A stretch of DNA of 16,273 nt from Pseudomonadota bacterium (GCA_043718025.1 JAYSWN010000008.1:1-16273), one strand, 5' to 3'; numbered from the stretch's first letter, positions 6,003-16,273 are shown. A program made the numbers and translations. Notes: generated by a model not told the origin, from the letters alone.

Positions 6003-7421
6003 TTAGCGGGGTTGCGCGGGAGTAGGGAAAGGCGAGGGAGTGGCCGCCTTAAGATTCCAACGCACGAATGCCTCAAGGTCTTCGGGGGTGCCCAGGCCGT
6101 GCATCTCGTGCTCGGCGATAGGAAAAATCTCTACCCTGAGACCCAAACGAATCATTTCGTTGTAGACCGGGCAAACGTAAAATTCACCTCGCGTGCGCCG
6201 CTCATGGCGAATCAACGCTTCAGCGGCTTCGACGAAGTAGGCGCCTTTTTTAAAGTAGTAAATCCCCGTTGTTGCGTGTGGGCTGATCACCAATTTTTCG
6301 GCCACCTCAACCACTTGGTTATCGGCGGTAGTCTTGGCGTAACTCCATTTCGGATCGCTGGCGGGAAAGGTTAAAATCAAACCGTCGCAACCACTGGTGG
6401 CCGCATGGTGAAAGAACGGATCGAGCGTCAGGCCAAGCCATTGATCCACGTTGGCGATTAACAGCGGCTTTTGCAAATCTAGGTGTTCGAGTGCAAGCAA
6501 TACGGTGCACGCGGCACCCTGGGTGGTTTCGGGCACGTCGACGATCTGACATTCCGGTGAAAGCCAGCGAAGATTTGAAGCTAAATTCGTTTCACGCAAG
6601 TGGCTTTGGCGGCAAAGAAAAGTAAACCGGTGAGTCAAATGGGTAGGGCGCAAATTTTCAATCACCCAATCGACCATCGGGCGGCCAAAGATAGGGATGA
6701 GAGGTTTTGGCTCAGCGTACCCCTTTTGCTGAAAGCGAGCGCCTTCGCCTGCCATGGGAATCACGATCTCAATATCGGGTGAGGCCCCAAGGTTTGCGTC
6801 GGTTTCTGGCTGGCGTTTGAGATCGCGGCGCAAACGTTCGAGCGTCACTTCGCGGGGACTGCGCACGACAATCAAATTGTTGGTGACGGCGGTGGCGGCG
6901 GTAACTCCGGTGAGCGAATCTTCTACAATCGCCATTTCAGAAGCGCTTACCCCAAACCGTTTTAATGCCTCGAAGTAAATCGCCGGATGGGGCTTAGGTG
7001 CTGAAACCTCTTCTTGCGACAGCGCGAACTCAAACACTTCAGAGATTTTTAGTTTCTGCAGAAAAAGCTCTAGCGTGGCGCGGGTGCAGTTGGTGGCCAC
7101 CGCGAGGCGGTAGCCTTCTCGCTTTAATGTGGACAATAAATTGGCATGTTCATCGTTGGGCTTTAGTTCGCGTTCGGCAATCTCTCGAGTGTAATGCTGC
7201 TTGAGCTCATTCAAAAAAGGGTGAAGGGCGCGGGGAAGGCCGGTGCGCTGAGAAAGAATTTCTAGTTTGGTGCGAGTGGGTAAACCGTTGTAAAGCGCCT
7301 GATGCTCGTCTTTCGTGATGGAGTAGCCGAATATGGAAAGGGCGCGGTTAAAGGCCTGAAAGTGCCATTCCACGGCATCCACCAGAACTCCATCTAGATC
7401 GAAAACAATCGCACGAATCAT
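6003..7421 (-). CDS. Fusion of a HAD-family phosphatase and a BcbE-like sugar nucleotidyltransferase/GT-A domain
   Basis: N-terminal HAD motifs FDLDG, ATN, KPHP and EDS. C-terminal IVIPMAGEGARF...PKPLI, GAACT, NVDQ, KWSY, VAEK, EFYV.PVYN and GLGTPEDL. The start is placed at ATG 7421 (MIRAIVFD); the ORF track begins at GTG 7457. Confidence 0.88.
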   Translation of the reverse strand: MIRAIVFDLDGVLVDAVEWHFQAFNRALSIFGYSITKDEHQALYNGLPTRTKLEILSQRTGLPRALHPFLNELKQHYTREIAERELKPNDEHANLLSTLKREGYRLAVATNCTRATLELFLQKLKISEVFEFALSQEEVSAPKPHPAIYFEALKRFGVSASEMAIVEDSLTGVTAATAVTNNLIVVRSPREVTLERLRRDLKRQPETDANLGASPDIEIVIPMAGEGARFQQKGYAEPKPLIPIFGRPMVDWVIENLRPTHLTHRFTFLCRQSHLRETNLASNLRWLSPECQIVDVPETTQGAACTVLLALEHLDLQKPLLIANVDQWLGLTLDPFFHHAATSGCDGLILTFPASDPKWSYAKTTADNQVVEVAEKLVISPHATTGIYYFKKGAYFVEAAEALIRHERRTRGEFYVCPVYNEMIRLGLRVEIFPIAEHEMHGLGTPEDLEAFVRWNLKAATPSPFPTPAQPR

Positions 7422-7514
7422 TCCGGCTAATTCTAATTGAAAATCGGCGATCCGCACTGATGCGGCGCGCTATCTCAGTTTGCCTGATCCCGGGGTAAGG
7501 CAATCTCCGCTCGA

Positions 7515-8405
7515 TTAGAAAAAGCCGTAGCGGGTGACGATTGCAAATGACTGGGCCGCCGGCGTATTTCGTGACCAGCCAACTTGCGGCACCGTGAATT
7601 CGGCGGTGGCGGCAATGGACCAGACGCGATCGATAAAAAAAGTGGGCTGGATAAAAGCGGAAACCGTGTTGCTGCTCGTTGCGGCGATGGTTCTGCCGTT
7701 TGCAAAAGTGTTTCCAGTCCAGACTTGGCTGCTACCCAAAGCGAGCGAAAGGCGGTTTGAGAAATTGTAGGCAACGGTTTCGGAGAGTTCGAATTGGTTT
7801 CCCAATCTATCTCCGGTCGCCGGGGCGAGCCGATGGGTGTAGCTTGCGCGTAGGCCCAAGGAGGTCGCGCCTAACTTTTTTTCTACGCCAACGCCGACGT
7901 AGGGTTCCCACATTCCATTGCCGGTGCCGGGCGTCCAGGTGCCATCCACCTTTTTTTCAACCGATCCGGTGGGCAGTTTAACCCCGCCCTGAAGGCGAAT
8001 CGTCGGATACCAGTCATCGGTAAACAGGGCCTCTAAGGCAGTCCAGTCGACGCCAATTGAAACATCCCCTACTCCGCGTCGATCGGCGAGGGTGGCGCCG
8101 TAGGACTTAGCTTGGGTGACTAAGGGAACCAACGCCTGAATTTGCCAGTCGGGATGTAGGCGCATGCCGGCACCAATGGTTAAAGCTATGGTCCGGTGCA
8201 GTTCGGTTTTTTCAGCCTCTCCTGAAGAGTTAAACCTCCCGTAATCTTCTTTATACGACAATGAGGTTCCCACTTCGTATTTCTGAAGGCGAGTTAGGGA
8301 AATGAAACTTTTAGAGGCGCCGCCGATACAACAAGCCGCCGCGAGCACCCAGCGGGAGAAAAACAGACTAAACCAACTCAGCCGCAGCCATCTCATCAAC
8401 TTCAC
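7515..8405 (-). CDS. Outer-membrane beta-barrel protein (putative transporter, MetA-pathway/SphA-like) with N-terminal Cys-Cys
   Basis: Signal peptide followed by AACCIGG. Amphipathic beta strands, G(V)GD(V), GVKLPTG and GTGNGMW motifs, and an aromatic C-terminal signature TRYGFF. The start is GTG 8405 or ATG 8396. Confidence 0.75.
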   Translation of the reverse strand: MKLMRWLRLSWFSLFFSRWVLAAACCIGGASKSFISLTRLQKYEVGTSLSYKEDYGRFNSSGEAEKTELHRTIALTIGAGMRLHPDWQIQALVPLVTQAKSYGATLADRRGVGDVSIGVDWTALEALFTDDWYPTIRLQGGVKLPTGSVEKKVDGTWTPGTGNGMWEPYVGVGVEKKLGATSLGLRASYTHRLAPATGDRLGNQFELSETVAYNFSNRLSLALGSSQVWTGNTFANGRTIAATSSNTVSAFIQPTFFIDRVWSIAATAEFTVPQVGWSRNTPAAQSFAIVTRYGFF

Positions 8406-8407
8406 GA

Positions 8408-8971
8408 TTAACGGCCTTTTCCCTTTGGAATATCGATGCCGACTTTAACTACTTGTTTAGCCCCGTCTTCGAAAACTAAGTTCATTTCCCAGTAGCCACC
8501 ATGGGCAATGTCGAGCGTGGCTTCCACTTCAGTCGCCGATTTTTTATTAAGCGTGGCGGTGAAAGGGCCGCCCATTTCCGGCATGGTGGGCATGTCGTAT
8601 TCAACCAGGGTCAGCTTATCGATGGCGAGGGGGGTGAGCGTAAGATCGCTCCATTTGATTGAAAGCACATTCTCTTTTCCCGGTTGAAGATTAAGAGTGG
8701 AAACACTCACCACTTGCCGAGATGGCAAAATGAAGAGGCCCGGCATGGCGTTTGTATTACGCTGGGCTTGCACACGTTCACCTTTCTGACGGAGAACAAG
8801 TCCGCTGCCTTTTTCAGTGTTAGTCGCGTGAACTAGCACGGTGCTGCCCGTGCTTACCGCAGGTTGAGAAATGGCGGACAACGGGGCCGGCGAGTTAATT
8901 TGGCAGCCGGTTAGCATCACGCCGGATAGTAAGATGGCCAATCCGACGGCATGGATGGATTTAAGCTTCAT
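8408..8971 (-). CDS. Lipoprotein with a C-terminal YtkA/FixH-like Ig-fold domain (Met-rich, putative Cu binding)
   Basis: Start at ATG 8971 (MKLKSIHAV...) and lipobox LTGC. YDMPTMPEMG and downstream HGGYWEM follow the MP.M...G.W pattern of YtkA-like domains. Confidence 0.7.
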   Translation of the reverse strand: MKLKSIHAVGLAILLSGVMLTGCQINSPAPLSAISQPAVSTGSTVLVHATNTEKGSGLVLRQKGERVQAQRNTNAMPGLFILPSRQVVSVSTLNLQPGKENVLSIKWSDLTLTPLAIDKLTLVEYDMPTMPEMGGPFTATLNKKSATEVEATLDIAHGGYWEMNLVFEDGAKQVVKVGIDIPKGKGR

Positions 8972-8981
8972 ATTTTTAATG

Positions 8982-9449
8982 TTAATGAGCCATCGCTTGC
9001 TTAAGGTTTTTCCAACCACGAATCACTTCTCCGTCACCAAGCTTCGTCGTTTTATCTTTTGCCGCTTTTTCAGACGCAAAAGCCACCACCGTCGGTGGCA
9101 TGTCGAAGTCGAGCTCTTTCAGTAGATTTTTACTGCGAACCAGAAAGTAAGCGTCGTCGCCCGGTATGGTTTTGTCGCTACTGAAATCGGTGACTTCAAA
9201 TTTGGCCTCGGGAAATTTATCCGAGGTTTTCGTAGCGCAGGCAAAGGAGCAAAGGTGACGCGGTTTTTCCTGCACCTTGGTGAAAAAGGCGGTCTTGGCC
9301 GTGGGCCGAAACGTCATTCCGCAGACCGGACATTCGGCAAGTTTGGCGGAATTTCCGGCGACCGGTGCGGCCACAAGGTGAGGGGAGACCAGGAGGCCTA
9401 AACTTAAGAAGAGGGGAATCAAAAATCCCCGGCTAATGCTTTGCGTCAT
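8982..9449 (-). CDS. NosL-like periplasmic metal (copper) chaperone
   Basis: Signal peptide, then CPVCGM, HLCSFAC, VTDF, AYFLV.S, DM..TVVAFASEKAA and a terminal G..I.GW. This is the NosL/YHS-TRASH layout. Confidence 0.78.
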   Translation of the reverse strand: MTQSISRGFLIPLFLSLGLLVSPHLVAAPVAGNSAKLAECPVCGMTFRPTAKTAFFTKVQEKPRHLCSFACATKTSDKFPEAKFEVTDFSSDKTIPGDDAYFLVRSKNLLKELDFDMPPTVVAFASEKAAKDKTTKLGDGEVIRGWKNLKQAMAH

Positions 9450-9501: not shown

Positions 9502-10287
9502 TTACTTTGCCAATGATTTTAGGGTTGGACTGAGCGTCAGCAAGTGACTCATCGCGGGACCACTATTTGAAGTGGCCTCTCCAGATGAAGTGCAGCCGCC
9601 CAAGGTGTGCACGCCCATCACCCGTATGCTTTGTTGGTTTTGCTCATCGAAAGAGAGAATGGCCGAGCCTGAGCTGCCGGGTTCGGTGTCACAGCGGTGG
9701 TGCAACATGTTGTCTTTCATCTCGTTTACCGCACACTCCTCAAGCGAGATCTGCATCGGTTTACCGGAGGGGTGGTGCAACATTACCAGCTCTTGTTTTG
9801 CCTTAGCTTGAAGCTTGGCCGGCGGATAATAGCCCCACTTCACGCCGGGCTTTCCTTCGAGGCGAATGATCATAAAATCCTCGTCGTTGCCGGCGCCACC
9901 CTTCTCAACCACTTCGGCGCAGTTAAAAACTTCCTGCTGATCGCGTTCGGCCAAAAAATTGAATGCTACCTTGATCTTGTCGCACGATGACTGAAAGCAG
10001 TGGCGCGCGGTCAAAAAAAGATCGTTCGAGATAAGGGTTCCGGTGCAGCGGGCCACATTGCCTAAGAAAGAAGTTTCGCGGTACTGGCCGATTGGAAAAC
10101 CAAGCTCCTGCAACTCTTCTTCTTGTTCGACTACGGGCGCCATGTTGTTCTCGCCGCAGATGCTGCGAGACGCGTCAATGGAATGGCCTAGCCAATCAGT
10201 TTTTAGAATATCTAAAGAGGCGGCGCTTGAGCGGTGGCTTACTCCGAGTAGGGTCGCGAACAACAACACGGCGAGTCTTTTCGTCAC
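9502..10287 (-). CDS. Secreted trypsin-like (S1) serine protease
   Basis: Catalytic triad contexts CTGTLI...TARHC (His), EDFMII (Asp) and DTEPGSSGS (Ser), plus GVHTLGGC and multiple Cys. A signal peptide follows GTG 10287, which has a GGAG RBS; the ORF track starts at ATG 10308. Confidence 0.9.
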   Translation of the reverse strand: MTKRLAVLLFATLLGVSHRSSAASLDILKTDWLGHSIDASRSICGENNMAPVVEQEEELQELGFPIGQYRETSFLGNVARCTGTLISNDLFLTARHCFQSSCDKIKVAFNFLAERDQQEVFNCAEVVEKGGAGNDEDFMIIRLEGKPGVKWGYYPPAKLQAKAKQELVMLHHPSGKPMQISLEECAVNEMKDNMLHHRCDTEPGSSGSAILSFDEQNQQSIRVMGVHTLGGCTSSGEATSNSGPAMSHLLTLSPTLKSLAK

Positions 10288-10379
10288 GTAGGGCTCCTTT
10301 GGAAGCATTGTTGATACTTACTAAAAAGTGAAACGGTGGTATTCTAATAGAGTCGCTTTTTTCACCCTCCTGTCACACC

Positions 10380-11453
10380 ATGACCCAAAAGCAATTGCTC
10401 CTTCTTGAAGAGGCTAGAGAGCATTTTTACGCCTGGCGTATGCTCGATGCTTACAACATCTTCCGTCGATTCTTCGACCGTTTGCCATTTTCTGCTGAAA
10501 AAGAGCATGCCGAATTTATTGGGCCATTTGTACGTGTGCTGTTTGAACTGGGAAAAGAATTCGAGCTGAAGTTCTATCTCGCTGAACTAGAGAAGTTATA
10601 CCAAAAACAAAAGCATCCGCATATCGCATACGCGCTGGGGTTTCTTTACAGCTATTCGGGCGCCGAAAAAGTGGAAGCGGCGCGCCAGGTTTTTGAAAGT
10701 ATCGTGCGTGATCCTAGCGCCAGCGACTTTCACGCCAAATCAAAAATGATGTTGGCCGATTATCACCTACGAAAAGGGGACGTGCACGCGGCCCATCTTT
10801 GCATCGATTCCGTAGGTGAGGTCGAGGATCCAACGAATGCCACTTTGCTGCAGATCTGGAAAGCGGTGATTGCCCGGCGCGAACAGAAGTTTGAACAGGC
10901 GCGCGACTTGCTTATCGCCGTAATTCTCACCCTTGATTGCCGGCGTAACTGGTACTCCTATTTTTCTGCGATGAACGTGCTGGCCATGGTGCATGTAGAT
11001 TTAGGTGATCTCGATCGCGCCCAACTTGCGGTGGGTGAGCTGGAAAAACTCTTCGACCAAGGTAAGTTTCGGTCGGTACGCGAACAAATCGAATCTCTGC
11101 AATGCATAATCCAAGACAAAAAAGGGAATGGTCTGGTGCGTCTCGTGAAACGAGATACCGATCGGTATGAATTCTTCCACCGCGATCGATGCTTGCCGCT
11201 TAATCCAAAAATTTCTCAAGATCGTTTGCTACTTACGCTTTTGAAAAAAGGCTTTATCGAAAAAGCAATTATCATTCGGGGAATTTACGGCCGCGAGTAT
11301 GTTGCTGAAAAAGATGACAAGCTAATCTATTATCATATTCACAATTTGCGAAAACGTCTCCGCGCCGTGGGATTGCCTAACGATGTCCTGTTGAGTGAAA
11401 AAGAGGGATACCGATGGGCAACACCGGTGGAGACCACCGTGGAGGAACTATGA
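10380..11453 (+). CDS. TPR-repeat protein with a C-terminal OmpR/PhoB-type winged-helix DNA-binding domain
   Basis: Helical TPR-like repeats (YALGFLY...EAARQVFE, LADYHLRKGD...A, NVLAMVHVDLGDLDRA). The C-terminus LL..LLKKG...IIRGIYG...IYYHIHNLRKRL...EGYRW fits Trans_reg_C. Confidence 0.8.
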   Translation: MTQKQLLLLEEAREHFYAWRMLDAYNIFRRFFDRLPFSAEKEHAEFIGPFVRVLFELGKEFELKFYLAELEKLYQKQKHPHIAYALGFLYSYSGAEKVEAARQVFESIVRDPSASDFHAKSKMMLADYHLRKGDVHAAHLCIDSVGEVEDPTNATLLQIWKAVIARREQKFEQARDLLIAVILTLDCRRNWYSYFSAMNVLAMVHVDLGDLDRAQLAVGELEKLFDQGKFRSVREQIESLQCIIQDKKGNGLVRLVKRDTDRYEFFHRDRCLPLNPKISQDRLLLTLLKKGFIEKAIIIRGIYGREYVAEKDDKLIYYHIHNLRKRLRAVGLPNDVLLSEKEGYRWATPVETTVEEL

Positions 11454-12568
11454 GATTGAAGGCCATCTCTCTCATCGTAGCGATGGGGATCTCTTTGTCG
11501 GCAACGGCAAAGATGGAATATTCAAAATTTCTTGAAGGAGAATGCCGCGGACCGGGCGGAGAAGGTCCCAAGCCCCTTGTCCAACTACCCTTCTCACTGT
11601 CGCACATTCAACCTTACTCGTCGGCCAATGAAGTTCTCGACGGGCTGTTTCTTCCCCTCACCGGTCAATTTGCCTTTCGCGATGTTAAGGGAAACCTCAA
11701 AGTCACCAAGTTGGACAGCCACGCGACTACTGCGTTGGCTTCGGTAAAAAAACCGCTGGTGCGCGTGCGATCTGAGTCGGAACGGTTTCTTTCGTTTGAT
11801 AACATCGCCAGCGTCTTCGATAATTTTGAGCGACGTTTTTATAATTATCGGGCGGCGTATAACGGTAAAATTCGGCCGCTTTTTTGGGATAGATTCACCC
11901 AGTACAGCGCGGTGGTAAGCGATGACACCGATCGCAACGCCAAATTCCGCCTTCAGAGTTATCGAGTTGGCGATGGCAACCGGGCGCGCCGCGTCTGCCA
12001 CCGGTTGAACTTTGCGCTGAATAGTGGCTATCAACTGGGCGAAGGGCACGTGTACCCGTTCATGGTGCTGCACCGTACCGAAAAAATCGGCAAAGAGAAT
12101 AAACTCACGGTCTCTTTTCTAAACGTAGAGGATTGCACGATTCAGACTAAGGTTTACGCGGATTTGATGAAGGGCGAAGTGTTCAATGTTTACTATTTTG
12201 CCAAATTGAATTCTCTGCTTATCGAAACGAACCACCCAACCCAGCAGCTAATTTGGGATACCGGGCCAGATGACAAGCATTGCCACTACTACTCGCTAAA
12301 AGGCTCAAAACTATTGATGGTGAGTTACGAACATAACATCATCGGTGCTTTTGATCCGTACGACGGGCTTTCGTTAATATACCTTCACGACTTAGACAAC
12401 AATCCGCCAAAGGCGGCACAGGTCACCGGCGACTACCCAATGGCCGACATGAATTTATTCGACGTGGAATTGAGCAGCGACAAAAATACGTTAGTTGGCG
12501 TGACCCAACTTATTGATAAATCCAAAACGATCATCAAGATCGACGTGCCTAAGTACGATTATCCGTAG
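11450..12568 (+). CDS. Secreted hypothetical protein, beta-rich (possible beta-propeller)
   Basis: GGAGGA RBS before ATG 11450, which overlaps the upstream stop (ATGA). Signal peptide MRLKAISLIVAMGISLSATA. Long ORF of about 372 aa from this start. Confidence 0.8.
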   Translation: MRLKAISLIVAMGISLSATAKMEYSKFLEGECRGPGGEGPKPLVQLPFSLSHIQPYSSANEVLDGLFLPLTGQFAFRDVKGNLKVTKLDSHATTALASVKKPLVRVRSESERFLSFDNIASVFDNFERRFYNYRAAYNGKIRPLFWDRFTQYSAVVSDDTDRNAKFRLQSYRVGDGNRARRVCHRLNFALNSGYQLGEGHVYPFMVLHRTEKIGKENKLTVSFLNVEDCTIQTKVYADLMKGEVFNVYYFAKLNSLLIETNHPTQQLIWDTGPDDKHCHYYSLKGSKLLMVSYEHNIIGAFDPYDGLSLIYLHDLDNNPPKAAQVTGDYPMADMNLFDVELSSDKNTLVGVTQLIDKSKTIIKIDVPKYDYP

Positions 12569-12593: not shown

Positions 12594-13010
12594 CTACTGT
12601 GCAGCCAGGTAGGCTATTTCGCGTTTGCGCCAGATAAGAAAAACAGCGCCAAACGCCACTAAAAGCACGCAGACCAGTGCCAGTAAGAAGTTAACTCCTG
12701 CATTAGCGCCGATGACCAAAGGCGAATTGGGGTTACCCAGACAGACCGGGCACGCCCAGGCTGACTCTCCCGAGAACGCCAGCCCAGCGATGGATGCCGT
12801 CCACGCGAAGTAGCTTATGCTCTTCCACTTCTTCACAAACCAAATGCCGTAGATAAACAGGCCCACAAAGGTGGCCAGCGAAAGAAAGCCCAAGATCTGC
12901 ATTGTGCCGTCGCCAGTATCGGCCGCTTCACGTAGGCACCACACCCCCAAGCCTAAGCTCAAAAGATTGGATAAGAAGATAAACGCTACGTGAAACGATT
13001 TGAGACCCAT
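12594..13010 (-). CDS. Small membrane protein with a CPVC motif, last gene of the oxidase operon (putative assembly factor)
   Basis: AAGGTG RBS, 17 bp after the subunit IV gene. It has 3-4 hydrophobic segments and AWACPVCLGNPNSPL before the last TM helix. Confidence 0.75.
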   Translation of the reverse strand: MGLKSFHVAFIFLSNLLSLGLGVWCLREAADTGDGTMQILGFLSLATFVGLFIYGIWFVKKWKSISYFAWTASIAGLAFSGESAWACPVCLGNPNSPLVIGANAGVNFLLALVCVLLVAFGAVFLIWRKREIAYLAAQ

Positions 13011-13027
13011 TCAAACACCTTAAGTCA

Positions 13028-13312
13028 TCAGAGATACATAGAGATCGACATGCAAAAGACGAACAAAACTGAGGTGAGCGCGATGGTGGCGTAAATAATT
13101 TTTTTCTCATGCGCCAAATGCATAAAGAATAATGCCACCAGGCTGGCCTTGATTGTGGCAACAAACATAGCCAGCGCAATCGCTTTACCCGTAGATAAGT
13201 GGATGTAAGACACCCCCACCGTCACCACGGTCAAAAACAGCAAGGTTGCAAAAATACCAAGGTATAACTTAACGCTTTTTTTGATCGCCTCGGGCGATGA
13301 ATCAGCAGACAT
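13028..13312 (-). CDS. ctaF: Cytochrome c oxidase subunit IV (prokaryotic COX4/CyoD family)
   Basis: Three TM helices, Y..IF..LL.LT..TV and A.IKASLVALFFMHL motifs, and its position after subunit III. Confidence 0.88.
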   Translation of the reverse strand: MSADSSPEAIKKSVKLYLGIFATLLFLTVVTVGVSYIHLSTGKAIALAMFVATIKASLVALFFMHLAHEKKIIYATIALTSVLFVFCMSISMYL

Positions 13313-13327
13313 AGCTTCCGTCCTCTC

Positions 13328-13927
13328 TTAGAGCAGGTACAACAAGGGAAATAAGAAAATCCAAACCAAATCGACAAAATGCCAGTAAAGGCCGGCCACT
13401 TCGATACGGCCCGTGAACCGTTCTGGTTCAGTGTGCCACATTTTACTGCCGGGGCCTAAAAGGTACGCATTTACTATGATACCGCCGATGATGTGAATGG
13501 CGTGAAGGCCGGTCATCGTAAAGTAGATAGCAAAGTAGGTGTTAGTGGCCGGGTAGTATCCGTGATGAAACTTAGCCTGGTACTCAAAGTACTTAACGAC
13601 CAAAAATACGCAGGAGAGAACTACCGTTAGCCCCATGTACAGTTTGTATTTTCCAAACTCTTTCAGCTTTAACGAGGCCCAAGACATGACAATGGTTACC
13701 GATGAGGTGATCAGGAGCACGGTATTTAAAGCCCCCATCGGAATATTGAGCACTTCATAACCGTGCGGCCACACCGTGGCACCCGTGCGCAGAATGATAA
13801 ACGTCGAAAAGAGCGCTCCGAAGAGCATCACTTCCGAGGCCAAAAACAGCCAAATGCCAAACTTGGCGTTGGTAACTCCGGTTACCGGATGTTCGTGGTC
13901 TACGTAGGGAATTAAGCCAGCAGACAT
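13328..13927 (-). CDS. ctaE: Cytochrome c oxidase subunit III (short form, about 5 TM)
   Basis: [32 protein letters not shown] and [24 protein letters not shown] overlap with subunit I. Confidence 0.95.
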
Positions 13928-15690
13928 TAGGACTCCTTCGAGAATTGCGGAAGAAGGTTACGGTTTGGTGAGTACTGGTACGGGTCGCGATAGACCTCAA
14001 CCGCGTGCTCAAAATTAACGTGCGGCGGAGGCGTGGGGGTTGCCCACTCCAAGGTGGTGCCACCCCAGGGGTTCTTGTCGGTAACCACTTTGCCTTTTTT
14101 CAGACTCACCACCAAATTGTACAGAAAAGGGAGTTGGAATACGGCCAACGCCCAAGCTGCATAAGACATGACCACGTTAAAGATCTGTCCCTGAGCGCCA
14201 TGGGCGTAAACAGTTTGGTCGAACAACCGGCGCGAAATGCCCATCATCCCCATCATAAGCATCGGCATGAAGATAAAGTTCATGGAAACCATTGAACCCC
14301 AGAAATGAATCTTACCGAGCGTTTCATTAAACATTCGACCCGTCACTTTTGGATACCAGTGATAAACCCCGGCCATCAACGCAAACAGCGTACCCGGCGC
14401 AACCACGTAGTGGAAATGGCCAATAACGTAGTAGGTGTCGTGCAAATGAATGTCCGACGCGGTTAACCCCAAAGGCAATCCGGTTAGGCCACCGATGGCA
14501 AACATGGGTAAAAACGCCAGCGCAAAGAGCATTGGCACCGTGTAGCGAATGGACGCGCCCCACAACGTGAGCAGAAAAGTGGTCAGCACGATTACCGACG
14601 GTATTGAAATGATCAACGTGGTGGCCTGAAAGAATGAGCTCAAGGTGGTTCCCATGCCGGTCATGAACATGTGATGGGCCCAAACGATAAAAGAGGTAAA
14701 GCCCAAAAACAGCAGGGAGTACACTAACGTCCGGTACCCGTAGAGCGGTTTTTTAGTATTAGTGGCAATGATTTCGCCAACAATTCCTACCGCGGGCAAA
14801 ATCAGAACGTAAACTTCCGGGTGCGCCAAGAACCAGAAGAGATGTTGCCACAAGATGGGGTTGCCACCACCGGACACCTGAAGCGCCTCACCGCTTACTA
14901 CTAAGCCACTGGGCATAAAAAAGCTGGTACCCGCCAGACGATCCATGAGCTGGAGTACGCCTGCCGCTTCTAAAGGCGGAAAGGCCAGTAACAATAAGAA
15001 GGCGGTAATTACCTGCGCCCAGACCAAAATCGGCCAGCGCATAAAAGTCAGCCCTTTCACCCGAAGCTGAATGGCGGTGACAATCGTATTGATGCTACCC
15101 AGCAAAGAAGAGGTGATCAAAAAAACCATGCCGATAAGCCAATAGGTCTGAGCGTTGTTAGCAATAACGGCAAGCGGGGGATAAGAGGTCCAGCCACTTG
15201 CGGCGGCGCCACCGGGAGCTAAAAAGCTAAACATCATGATCATGCCGCCAATAAAAAACACCCAGTAGCTCATCATGTTGAGCTTGGGGAAGGCCATGTC
15301 ATGCGCGCCCACTTGAATCGGTAGTAAATAGTTTCCAAAACCGCCGACGCTCAAGGGCACCACGCCCAAGAAGATCATGATGGTTCCGTGCATGGCGCCA
15401 AGTTGGTTATAGGCCTCGGGCGACATCACGCCGCCGGGGAAAAGAGATTCACCCAGCAGCCCACCAATTAGCGGGAGCGGTTGGTTGGGGAAAGCCAGCT
15501 GCCAACGCATGAGTAGCATCAAACCGAAACCAATTAGCAAAAACAACATGGCCGTAACGGCGTACTGGATGCCAATCACTTTATGGTCGACCGAGAAGAT
15601 ATACTTTTTCCAAAAGGGCTCGTGAGCCCAATGTTCCATAGTATCCTTCAACATCTGATCGTGATCACCGGCGTGTGAGGACGCGCTCAT
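13927..15690 (-). CDS. ctaD: Heme-copper oxidase (A-family) subunit I
   Basis: [64 protein letters not shown] and GISRR. All six His ligands and the cross-linked Tyr are present. Confidence 0.98.
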
Positions 15691-16273
15691 GATTCATTCC
15701 CTTCTTCTTCAACTTCTTCTTGAACTTTAGATTTACGGATGGTCGTCTCTTCAACAGGAGCTTTTTGCACGGCAGGCGCGGCTTCCGCCGTCTCTCCCAT
15801 TTGCTCTTTGTGCTGCTCGGCCATCCACTTATCAAACTCTTCTTGCGTCTGGGCAATGAAACTACCGCGCATGCGGTAGTGGCCTACGCCACATAGTTGA
15901 GCGCAGGCAATTTCAAACTCGCCGGTCTCTTTGACTTCAAAATGGACCGGAATCTCCATCCCGGGAATAACGTCTTGTTTAACTCGAGCCACCGGGAGGA
16001 AGAAGGAGTGAATGACGTCTTTTGAACGAAGATCGATGACGATGGGCCGATTAATCGGAACGTGCAGGTTATTAATGGTTACGATGTCATCTTTGCCATC
16101 CGCACTCTCTCGATCCACTCCAATTGGGTTCGATGCGCTGTCGATCTTGGCGTTGTCGGTGGGACCAAATTTTCCGTCTTTACCCGGATAGCGGATGTTC
16201 CATGCGTACTGCTCGGCCACTAACTTAATCACCACCGCGTCTTTGCGATCGGGAAAGTCATTTTTATACTTTC
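15687..16273 (-). CDS. ctaC: Cytochrome c oxidase subunit II, C-terminal CuA domain (5' end lies outside the window)
   Basis: The frame is open to the window edge (...KYKNDFPDRKDAVVIKLVAEQYAW). Motifs SKDVIHSF, KQDVIPG and CAQLCGVGHYRM. ATGA overlap with subunit I. Confidence 0.95.
   Translation of the reverse strand, partial: KYKNDFPDRKDAVVIKLVAEQYAWNIRYPGKDGKFGPTDNAKIDSASNPIGVDRESADGKDDIVTINNLHVPINRPIVIDLRSKDVIHSFFLPVARVKQDVIPGMEIPVHFEVKETGEFEIACAQLCGVGHYRMRGSFIAQTQEEFDKWMAEQHKEQMGETAEAAPAVQKAPVEETTIRKSKVQEEVEEEGNES

Follow-up and report, generated by a model that had tools for sequence, protein, structure and literature searches.

A likely TonB-independent copper-trafficking module of the Bdellovibrionota built from a NosL-like protein, a YtkA-family lipoprotein and an outer-membrane barrel

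To our knowledge, the passage of copper across the outer membrane without TonB is poorly known, and PcoB is one of the few examples. The window analyzed here, a stretch of 16,273 nucleotides from a genome deposited as Pseudomonadota bacterium (GCA_043718025.1, JAYSWN010000008.1:1-16273), carries three adjacent genes for a NosL-like protein, a lipoprotein and an outer-membrane barrel. The initial annotation had read this trio as a copper import route that serves a cytochrome oxidase encoded nearby. Is this what the trio does, and does it hold for its relatives? We conclude that the trio is a conserved module of the Bdellovibrionota that likely moves copper across the cell envelope.

The three ORFs lie on the minus strand with gaps of 10 bp and 2 bp (Table 1), which is the tight co-directional packing described earlier, and the ligand motifs that had been listed for them (CPVCGM, HLCSFAC and a Met, MPTMPEM, and Cys-Cys) are all in the sequence. 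The trypsin-like protease gene upstream is kept across the genus and stands outside the wider module. A CuA oxidase had been placed about 3 kb away, and the cox operon is indeed found 3.1-6.8 kb from the trio, with a CuA motif in subunit II. The protease gene and two plus-strand genes lie between them, and because these two plus-strand genes intervene the cox operon is not co-transcribed with the trio. A promoter scan gave 3 matches against 5.4 by chance, which is below chance, terminator-like matches were uninformative, and a plasmid search gave no match to the module.

Table 1. The trio, its motifs and its context in the window.
Feature	Coordinates	Strand	Description
NosL-like gene	8982..9449	-	155 aa; predicted soluble periplasmic Zn/Cu(I) chaperone, signal peptide, CxxCxM...CSxxC...M
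CPVCGM motif (C40, C43, M45) of the NosL-like protein	9315..9332	-	equivalent to SdNosL C59, C62, M64
YtkA-family CrdA-like lipoprotein gene	8408..8971	-	187 aa from ATG at 8971; lipobox C23; Ig-like beta-sandwich
MPTMPEM methionine loop of the lipoprotein	8573..8593	-	aligns with the Met loop of CrdA; likely site for Cu(I)/Ag(I)
Outer-membrane beta-barrel gene, FapF/COG4313 fold (predicted)	7515..8405	-	296 aa, GTG start, C-terminal Phe
Cys25-Cys26 of the barrel (AACCxGG)	8328..8333	-	predicted mature N-terminus
Trypsin-like exported protease gene (context)	9502..10308	-	52 bp upstream of the trio
aa3/caa3-type cytochrome c oxidase operon, coxB-A-C-D and small membrane gene (context)	12594..16271	-	

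Other genes of the window were recorded as well. A HAD phosphatase fused to a nucleotidyltransferase is encoded on the same strand 57 bp downstream of the barrel (6003-7457); it is found at the same site in genomes G001 and G015 and is missing in G002. At 10380-12568 the gene of a TPR protein with a C-terminal winged-helix domain overlaps the gene of an exported unknown protein; the genus retains both genes, and in genus g3 the pair is duplicated (loci L166 and L167). The small membrane gene after coxD (12594-13010), whose product has a terminal segment with a CxxC motif, is conserved after cox in G002 and gave no family match.

Candidate metal sites of the three proteins

The NosL-like protein, with CPVCGM, HLCSFAC and Met117, matches the Pfam NosL family (PF05573) at E 2e-4, with 22.2 bits just under the 24-bit gathering score, and two of its homologs clear this cut-off (30.1 and 36.6 bits). 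The solved NosL structures 7osf, 7znq and 7og7 align with its profile over most of the protein, and the profile also matches the ribosomal L24e zinc finger. In the available part of PMC8457098 the zinc ligands of NosL are C59, C62, C88 and D92 and the Cu(I) ligands are C62, M64 and M145. The zinc positions map to C40, C43, C67 and C71, and the Cu(I) positions to C43, M45 and M117. The fourth zinc position is thus occupied by Cys71, and a Cys4 zinc site is predicted. As C40, C43, M45, C67, C71 and M117 are invariant in all 18 NosL-like homologs, the motifs are beyond chance. No lipobox cysteine was found before the CxxC, and the few such cysteines of homologs sit within signal peptides, so the protein is predicted to be soluble in the periplasm. 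Two other NosL copies were seen in different settings. In a lone NosL-like copy in a cox block (L166:8760-9200, genome G005), Thr replaces the Cu-ligand Met of CxxCxM, and in G062 a lipoprotein-type NosL, a YtkA protein and an ABC transporter form one operon without a barrel (L168:1821-5212), which is a second context of NosL together with YtkA.

The second protein carries the lipobox LTGC and the MPTMPEM motif. Met-rich loops select Cu(I)/Ag(I), and the MPTMPEM loop is likely such a site. In Pfam the window lipoprotein has no significant match of its own, and YtkA (PF13115) matches 43 of 77 homologs, several of them above cut-off. A single-sequence search of the PDB was without significant match. 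A profile of nine lipoprotein sequences found one significant solved structure, CrdA of Helicobacter pylori (9ll2, E 2.5e-9), with the Met loops of both proteins aligned. CrdA was also the best fold match of the AF2 model (pLDDT 81.6) among 48,161 chains, with Z 11.5, rmsd 2.4 and 104 aligned residues, the next-best Z being 9.0; Foldseek with the same model gave no match at E<=0.001, with CrdA ranked 2nd and 11th. According to the available text of PMC9182242, CrdA binds Cu(II) with a Kd in the micromolar range, its Met loop is a proposed Cu(I) site, and a copper efflux pump is encoded together with it. The initial annotation had drawn the parallel to CtaK (YtkA) of Bacillus subtilis, which supports CuA assembly and depends on His118 (PMC13344008, PMC9145763, each in the part available). 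The family assignment of this parallel stands, but fold, profile and Met loop are nearer to CrdA. Thus, with CtaK judged by its published description, in which this methionine loop is missing, the lipoprotein resembles the resistance protein CrdA more than CtaK.

The barrel has no significant Pfam match of its own. PF13557 (Phenol_MetA_deg) matches 3 of 77 members at E<=0.001, and the Atlas neighbours of the barrel carry this domain in 11-13% of members. The AF2 model (pLDDT 83) matches FapF in Foldseek (E 2e-16, TM 0.71-0.72), and by VIA the Z scores are 27.2 for FapF, 26.7 for the COG4313 protein 4rl8 and 12.7 for PcoB (rank 45). We therefore predict a 12-stranded FapF/COG4313 fold. The family is large, with 459 clusters at E<=1e-30 and 1,515 family representatives at E<=1e-10. 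The Atlas cluster bears the name 'serine protease spb1', under which the papers listed were all irrelevant; given the barrel fold, we rejected this name. No TonB-type plug was seen, in agreement with the TonB-independent route suggested before, and the window barrel has no His/Met-rich tail. The residues AACC come after the cleavage site predicted for the signal peptide. Of the 110 loci, which were not selected on the motif and of which five were read by eye, 105 have the N-terminal Cys pair (97 CC, 6 CH, 2 CxxC), three lack it and two are truncated; in an alignment selected on the motif, the pair forms the only conserved Cys/Met/His columns of the family. The earlier expectation of conserved Cys/Met residues is thus upheld. 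Residues 18-38, which hold the Cys pair and might plug the lumen, are modelled with pLDDT <50 and did not align to the FapF/COG4313 structures.

FapF is a polypeptide transporter and COG4313 a small-molecule channel, and neither is a metal channel. The top match to FapF could mean that the barrel is a secretion or display channel that puts the lipoprotein or the NosL-like protein on the surface as a copper sponge, with a Cys pair that is structural or redox-active and no metal gate; a third gene that mostly encodes a thioredoxin-fold protein (see below) could then keep the vicinal cysteines reduced. We regard this as quite improbable. The small-molecule channel scores equally well, the Cys-to-His change in six loci fits metal ligation better than a disulfide, and no genes for amyloid-like subunits recur nearby.

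Distribution of the module and its two versions

Close relatives are recorded as Bdellovibrionota or Oligoflexia. The barrel was found in 133 of 401 genomes of the phylum (E<=1e-10); of 40 genomes negative at first, a broader profile recovered it in 5. Neighbourhoods were examined at 110 loci, which come from 106 genomes in 66 genera and 19 families; each was covered for up to about 9 kb per side, less on some short contigs. The relatedness of the genomes inflates all counts. In 98 of these loci the gene immediately upstream of the barrel is YtkA-like. The third gene encodes a NosL-like protein in 18, a thioredoxin-fold redoxin in 77 and neither in 15. NosL-like genes occur in 22 of the 401 genomes, and 19 of the 24 copies adjoin lipoprotein and barrel (18 genomes, 5 families), so the trio is conserved together, as had been supposed; in two trio genomes (genus g4) the NosL-like gene is on the opposite strand.

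In a quick maximum-likelihood tree of 77 barrels, which leaves out the 33 of 110 loci without matched motif or adjacent lipoprotein, the NosL and redoxin types separate (SH-aLRT 100, midpoint root). The lipoprotein motif follows this split. MPxMPxM is present in 15 of 16 lipoproteins of the NosL clade and in none of 61 of the redoxin clade, whereas M-x-H is present in 0 of 16 and 51 of 61, respectively. The window genome has one barrel, and the trio is its only barrel/YtkA module; a second, redoxin-type barrel of full length was not found in the 17 other trio genomes, which suggests that both versions fill one role. Hence, the pair of barrel and lipoprotein is the phylum-wide core, the third gene is exchangeable and the two versions are largely exclusive.

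NosZ was detected in only one of 48 module-bearing genomes, on other contigs, and the idea that the module tracks with nosZ was rejected. In the window genome the only match to NosZ was the CoxII cupredoxin. The proposal that NosL is used here outside N2O reduction therefore holds, and NosL homologs outside nos clusters are noted in the available part of PMC8457098. In Bdellovibrionota records, the name 'nitrous oxide reductase accessory protein NosL' mostly stands for proteins without a tie to N2O reduction.

In the commoner redoxin-type module (77 of 110 loci; L082-L163, e.g. L091:6592-8533) the redoxin shows CPC-x-x-H together with a C-terminal Cys, the YtkA lipoprotein carries MPxMGHG and the barrel CC; a second His/Met YtkA protein is often present. 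This version appears to be vertically inherited and seems undescribed. A third barrel subtype with an N-terminal CxxC is flanked by YtkA-like genes without redoxin or NosL (L136 and L158, in G023 and G019). In genus g7 a shortened barrel stands alone at L068, L072, L073 and L074 where G022 has the full trio, which looks like decay of the trio; G009, G018 and G028 of this genus have a second barrel elsewhere, of the redoxin type where fetched. A recurring operon of unknown exported proteins and an outer-membrane-factor-like gene (L027:4884-8054, L069:10966-13345, L076, L077) adjoins NosL-type modules in four families.

Copper-efflux and oxidase genes near the module

Genes for heavy-metal CusA, CsoR or CopA lie within about 9 kb of 9 of 15 NosL-type loci outside the window genus, compared to 1 of 77 redoxin-type loci. 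At L028 and L075, NosL-clade barrels without NosL are found beside CopA. The three CusA Met motifs are present in 7 of 8 full or near-full RND pumps beside NosL-type loci. The neighbouring ATPases clear the Cu-ATPase cut-off TIGR01511, and the best NCBIfam match of the neighbouring CsoR is the copper-sensing RicR, below cut-off. A G-tract palindrome that overlaps the TTGAC/-35 element was detected within 450 bp upstream of 3 of 18 NosL-type loci and further upstream of two more, that is five loci in four genomes; none of 77 redoxin-type loci has it upstream, against a background of 28 in 2200 random windows. The palindrome matches the CsoR consensus (TAC/GTA, G-tract) given in the available part of PMC3902906 and overlaps the -35 element, which implies induction by excess copper. 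The operator loci come from only four genomes of two families, in the half of the NosL clade opposite the window genome. In G004 the trio lies beside csoR and copA, and a CuA subunit II was not detectable there. Beyond the window genus, the neighbours of the trio are thus Cu(I)-efflux genes and CsoR-type operators, and the claim that its homologs track with oxidases finds no general support.

Vicinal Cys and Cys4 (TRASH-like) sites bind several soft metals, and it is conceivable that the module handles Ag, Hg, Zn or Cd, or is a general thiol-redox module recruited into copper islands. The match of the NosL-like profile to the L24e zinc finger, the lack of metal genes near most redoxin-type loci, and the RND pump next to L062, which has no CusA Met motifs, would fit. 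We nevertheless consider this improbable, given the selectivity of Met-rich loops for Cu(I)/Ag(I) and neighbours that are Cu-type ATPases, Met-bearing CusA and a RicR-like CsoR.

The link of the trio to the neighbouring oxidase is weak. Seven of the 110 loci, all from family f1, have cox genes close to the module: three are NosL-type loci in the window genus, with a shared syntenic block, and four are redoxin-type loci in genus g12, with an act-sco-cox operon; in both genera unrelated genes lie between module and cox. As only 3 of 18 NosL-type loci of a single genus show this proximity, dedicated delivery to the adjacent oxidase, as the initial annotation had it, finds no support as a general claim. 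In genus g3 a lone NosL-like gene stays in the cox syntenic block together with regulator and CoaB-like genes; this is block synteny and therefore not countable as an independent case.

It might still be that the barrel admits copper and that the YtkA and NosL proteins, with Sco, pass it to CuA of a heme-copper oxidase in place of PCuAC. We find this somewhat unlikely. The role of CtaK in CuA assembly (PMC13344008, PMC9145763, in the parts available) would be a precedent, the M-x-H motif of the redoxin-type lipoproteins recalls its His/Met, and in the window genome Sco was found without PCuAC. Besides the cox proximities just described, a redoxin-type module adjoins both sco and PCuAC in G183 and sco in G030, and at seven loci RegB-like kinases, which score below their family cut-off, are neighbours. 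However, cox proximity is confined to one family and comes with synteny of unrelated genes, and the motif of the NosL-type lipoprotein has no His. The CuA subunit II (COX2) is present in 27 of 35 barrel-less genomes and was not detected in 3 of 48 module genomes (88-99% complete). All eight COX2-negative genomes of the 40-genome sample are also without barrel, and six of them are small genomes of one family. Among genomes with PCuAC, 19 of 60 are on the barrel list compared to 133 of 401 overall; there is no anticorrelation, and as a rule for the whole phylum we rejected that the module replaces PCuAC. For oxidase supply the redoxin-type sister module is a better candidate than the NosL-type trio.

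The window genome itself, which is 92% complete, encodes one Sco, a cbb3-like besides an aa3-type oxidase, and a pair of heavy-metal RND pumps, neither with the CusA Met motifs. Searches of it for PCuAC, a Cu P1B-ATPase and CsoR gave nothing, nor was a CsoR-type operator found at its trio; of the copper genes named for checking, Sco was thus recovered, but PCuAC and NosZ were not. Control genomes nearly all have a P1B copper ATPase, unlike this genome. The missing ATPase and CsoR may reflect its completeness. As the usual efflux genes are missing, oxidase supply stays plausible in this genome.

Proposed function and comparison with known systems

Three independent sets of ligands, the relationships to CrdA and NosL, and the neighbouring genes make it likely that the module handles copper, and we hold this sequence-based view with good confidence. 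Our main reading, to which we give a probability of about one half, is that the module would shuttle Cu(I) between periplasm and outside without TonB, and that the NosL version would mainly buffer or expel excess copper. The soluble NosL-like protein would hold a structural zinc on its four cysteines and take up Cu(I) on Cys43, Met45 and Met117. It might then give Cu(I) up to the Met loop of the lipoprotein, which is anchored in the membrane, and from this loop the ion would reach the N-terminal Cys pair, the putative gate of the barrel. Since no energy source is part of the module, the direction would follow the gradient, and cuproenzymes could also be supplied when copper is scarce. Buffering or export and oxidase supply could hence both hold under different conditions.

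Several points speak against the excess-copper reading. The window genome shows no CsoR, Cu P1B-ATPase or operator, its trio lies near cox, and PCuAC was not found in it. The two versions seem to fill one role, and the redoxin type leans to oxidase genes. Finally, the closest folds of the modelled barrel, FapF and COG4313, are not metal channels.

No description of the trio, of its parts in Bdellovibrionota, or of a Cys-gated barrel of the COG4313 fold was found in the literature searched, whose coverage was incomplete, in accord with the earlier remark that the trio was not recognized as a named system. The parts each belong to known families; their combination seems undescribed. We regard the trio as likely an undescribed TonB-independent copper-trafficking module, which is probably protective in its NosL form. 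More tentatively, and at less than even odds, the module may stand for a new class of TonB-independent copper channel, a FapF/COG4313 barrel gated by an N-terminal Cys pair and loaded by its own dedicated YtkA/CrdA lipoprotein, in at least a third of the sampled Bdellovibrionota. Its two interchangeable versions would be redoxin with a His/Met lipoprotein, directed to oxidases, and NosL with a Met-loop lipoprotein under CsoR control, directed to copper excess. The module would add a second channel family, unrelated to PcoB, for TonB-independent copper passage and give the large COG4313 barrel group its first metal role. It would place the YtkA domain in a defined Gram-negative pathway, and the CrdA match would link CrdA to the YtkA family; according to the available part of PMC12362106, YtkA domains outside B. 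subtilis had not been studied. Closed genomes of the phylum include the redoxin version, which should therefore be genetically tractable.

The relation to known systems differs from protein to protein. Compared to NosL (PMC8457098; 7og7, 7osf), the NosL-like protein keeps CxxCxM, the third Cys and the C-terminal Met at the same length and domain span. However, it has no lipid-anchor Cys, its fourth zinc ligand is Cys rather than Asp/Glu, its score is below the Pfam cut-off and there is no nosZDFY near its gene. With FapF and COG4313 (PF13557; 5o65, 4rl8) the barrel shares the predicted 12-stranded fold (Z 26-27, rmsd about 2 A), but identity is 14-22%, and the conserved N-terminal Cys pair and the metal-chaperone partners set it apart. 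PcoB/CopB (7pge), in the available part of PMC12509749 a TonB-independent barrel whose N-terminus carries metal ligands and which acts in copper efflux, resembles the barrel in this layout and in its proposed role in copper homeostasis. Here the fold match is distant, PcoB has a His/Met-rich tail in place of the Cys pair, and its partner is the oxidase PcoA instead of YtkA and NosL proteins; no multicopper oxidase is among the recurring module neighbours listed. By these tests PcoB is a functional precedent, but not a homolog.

The lipoprotein shares its Pfam family with CtaK and the YtkA domain of YcnJ, and like CtaK it is a lipoprotein. CtaK, however, needs His118 and acts with Sco in a monoderm, whereas the Met loop of the NosL-type lipoprotein is free of His; the M-x-H of the redoxin-type sister is closer to the His/Met of CtaK. 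The second comparison is CrdA of the H. pylori crdAB-czcBA copper efflux system (9ll2, 9ll4, 9ll5). The module protein differs from it in being a lipobox lipoprotein encoded directly before a 12-stranded barrel rather than CrdB, with NosL or a redoxin as partner. Both have the same fold and the same MPxMPxM loop, and relatives of the module are also associated with RND copper efflux.
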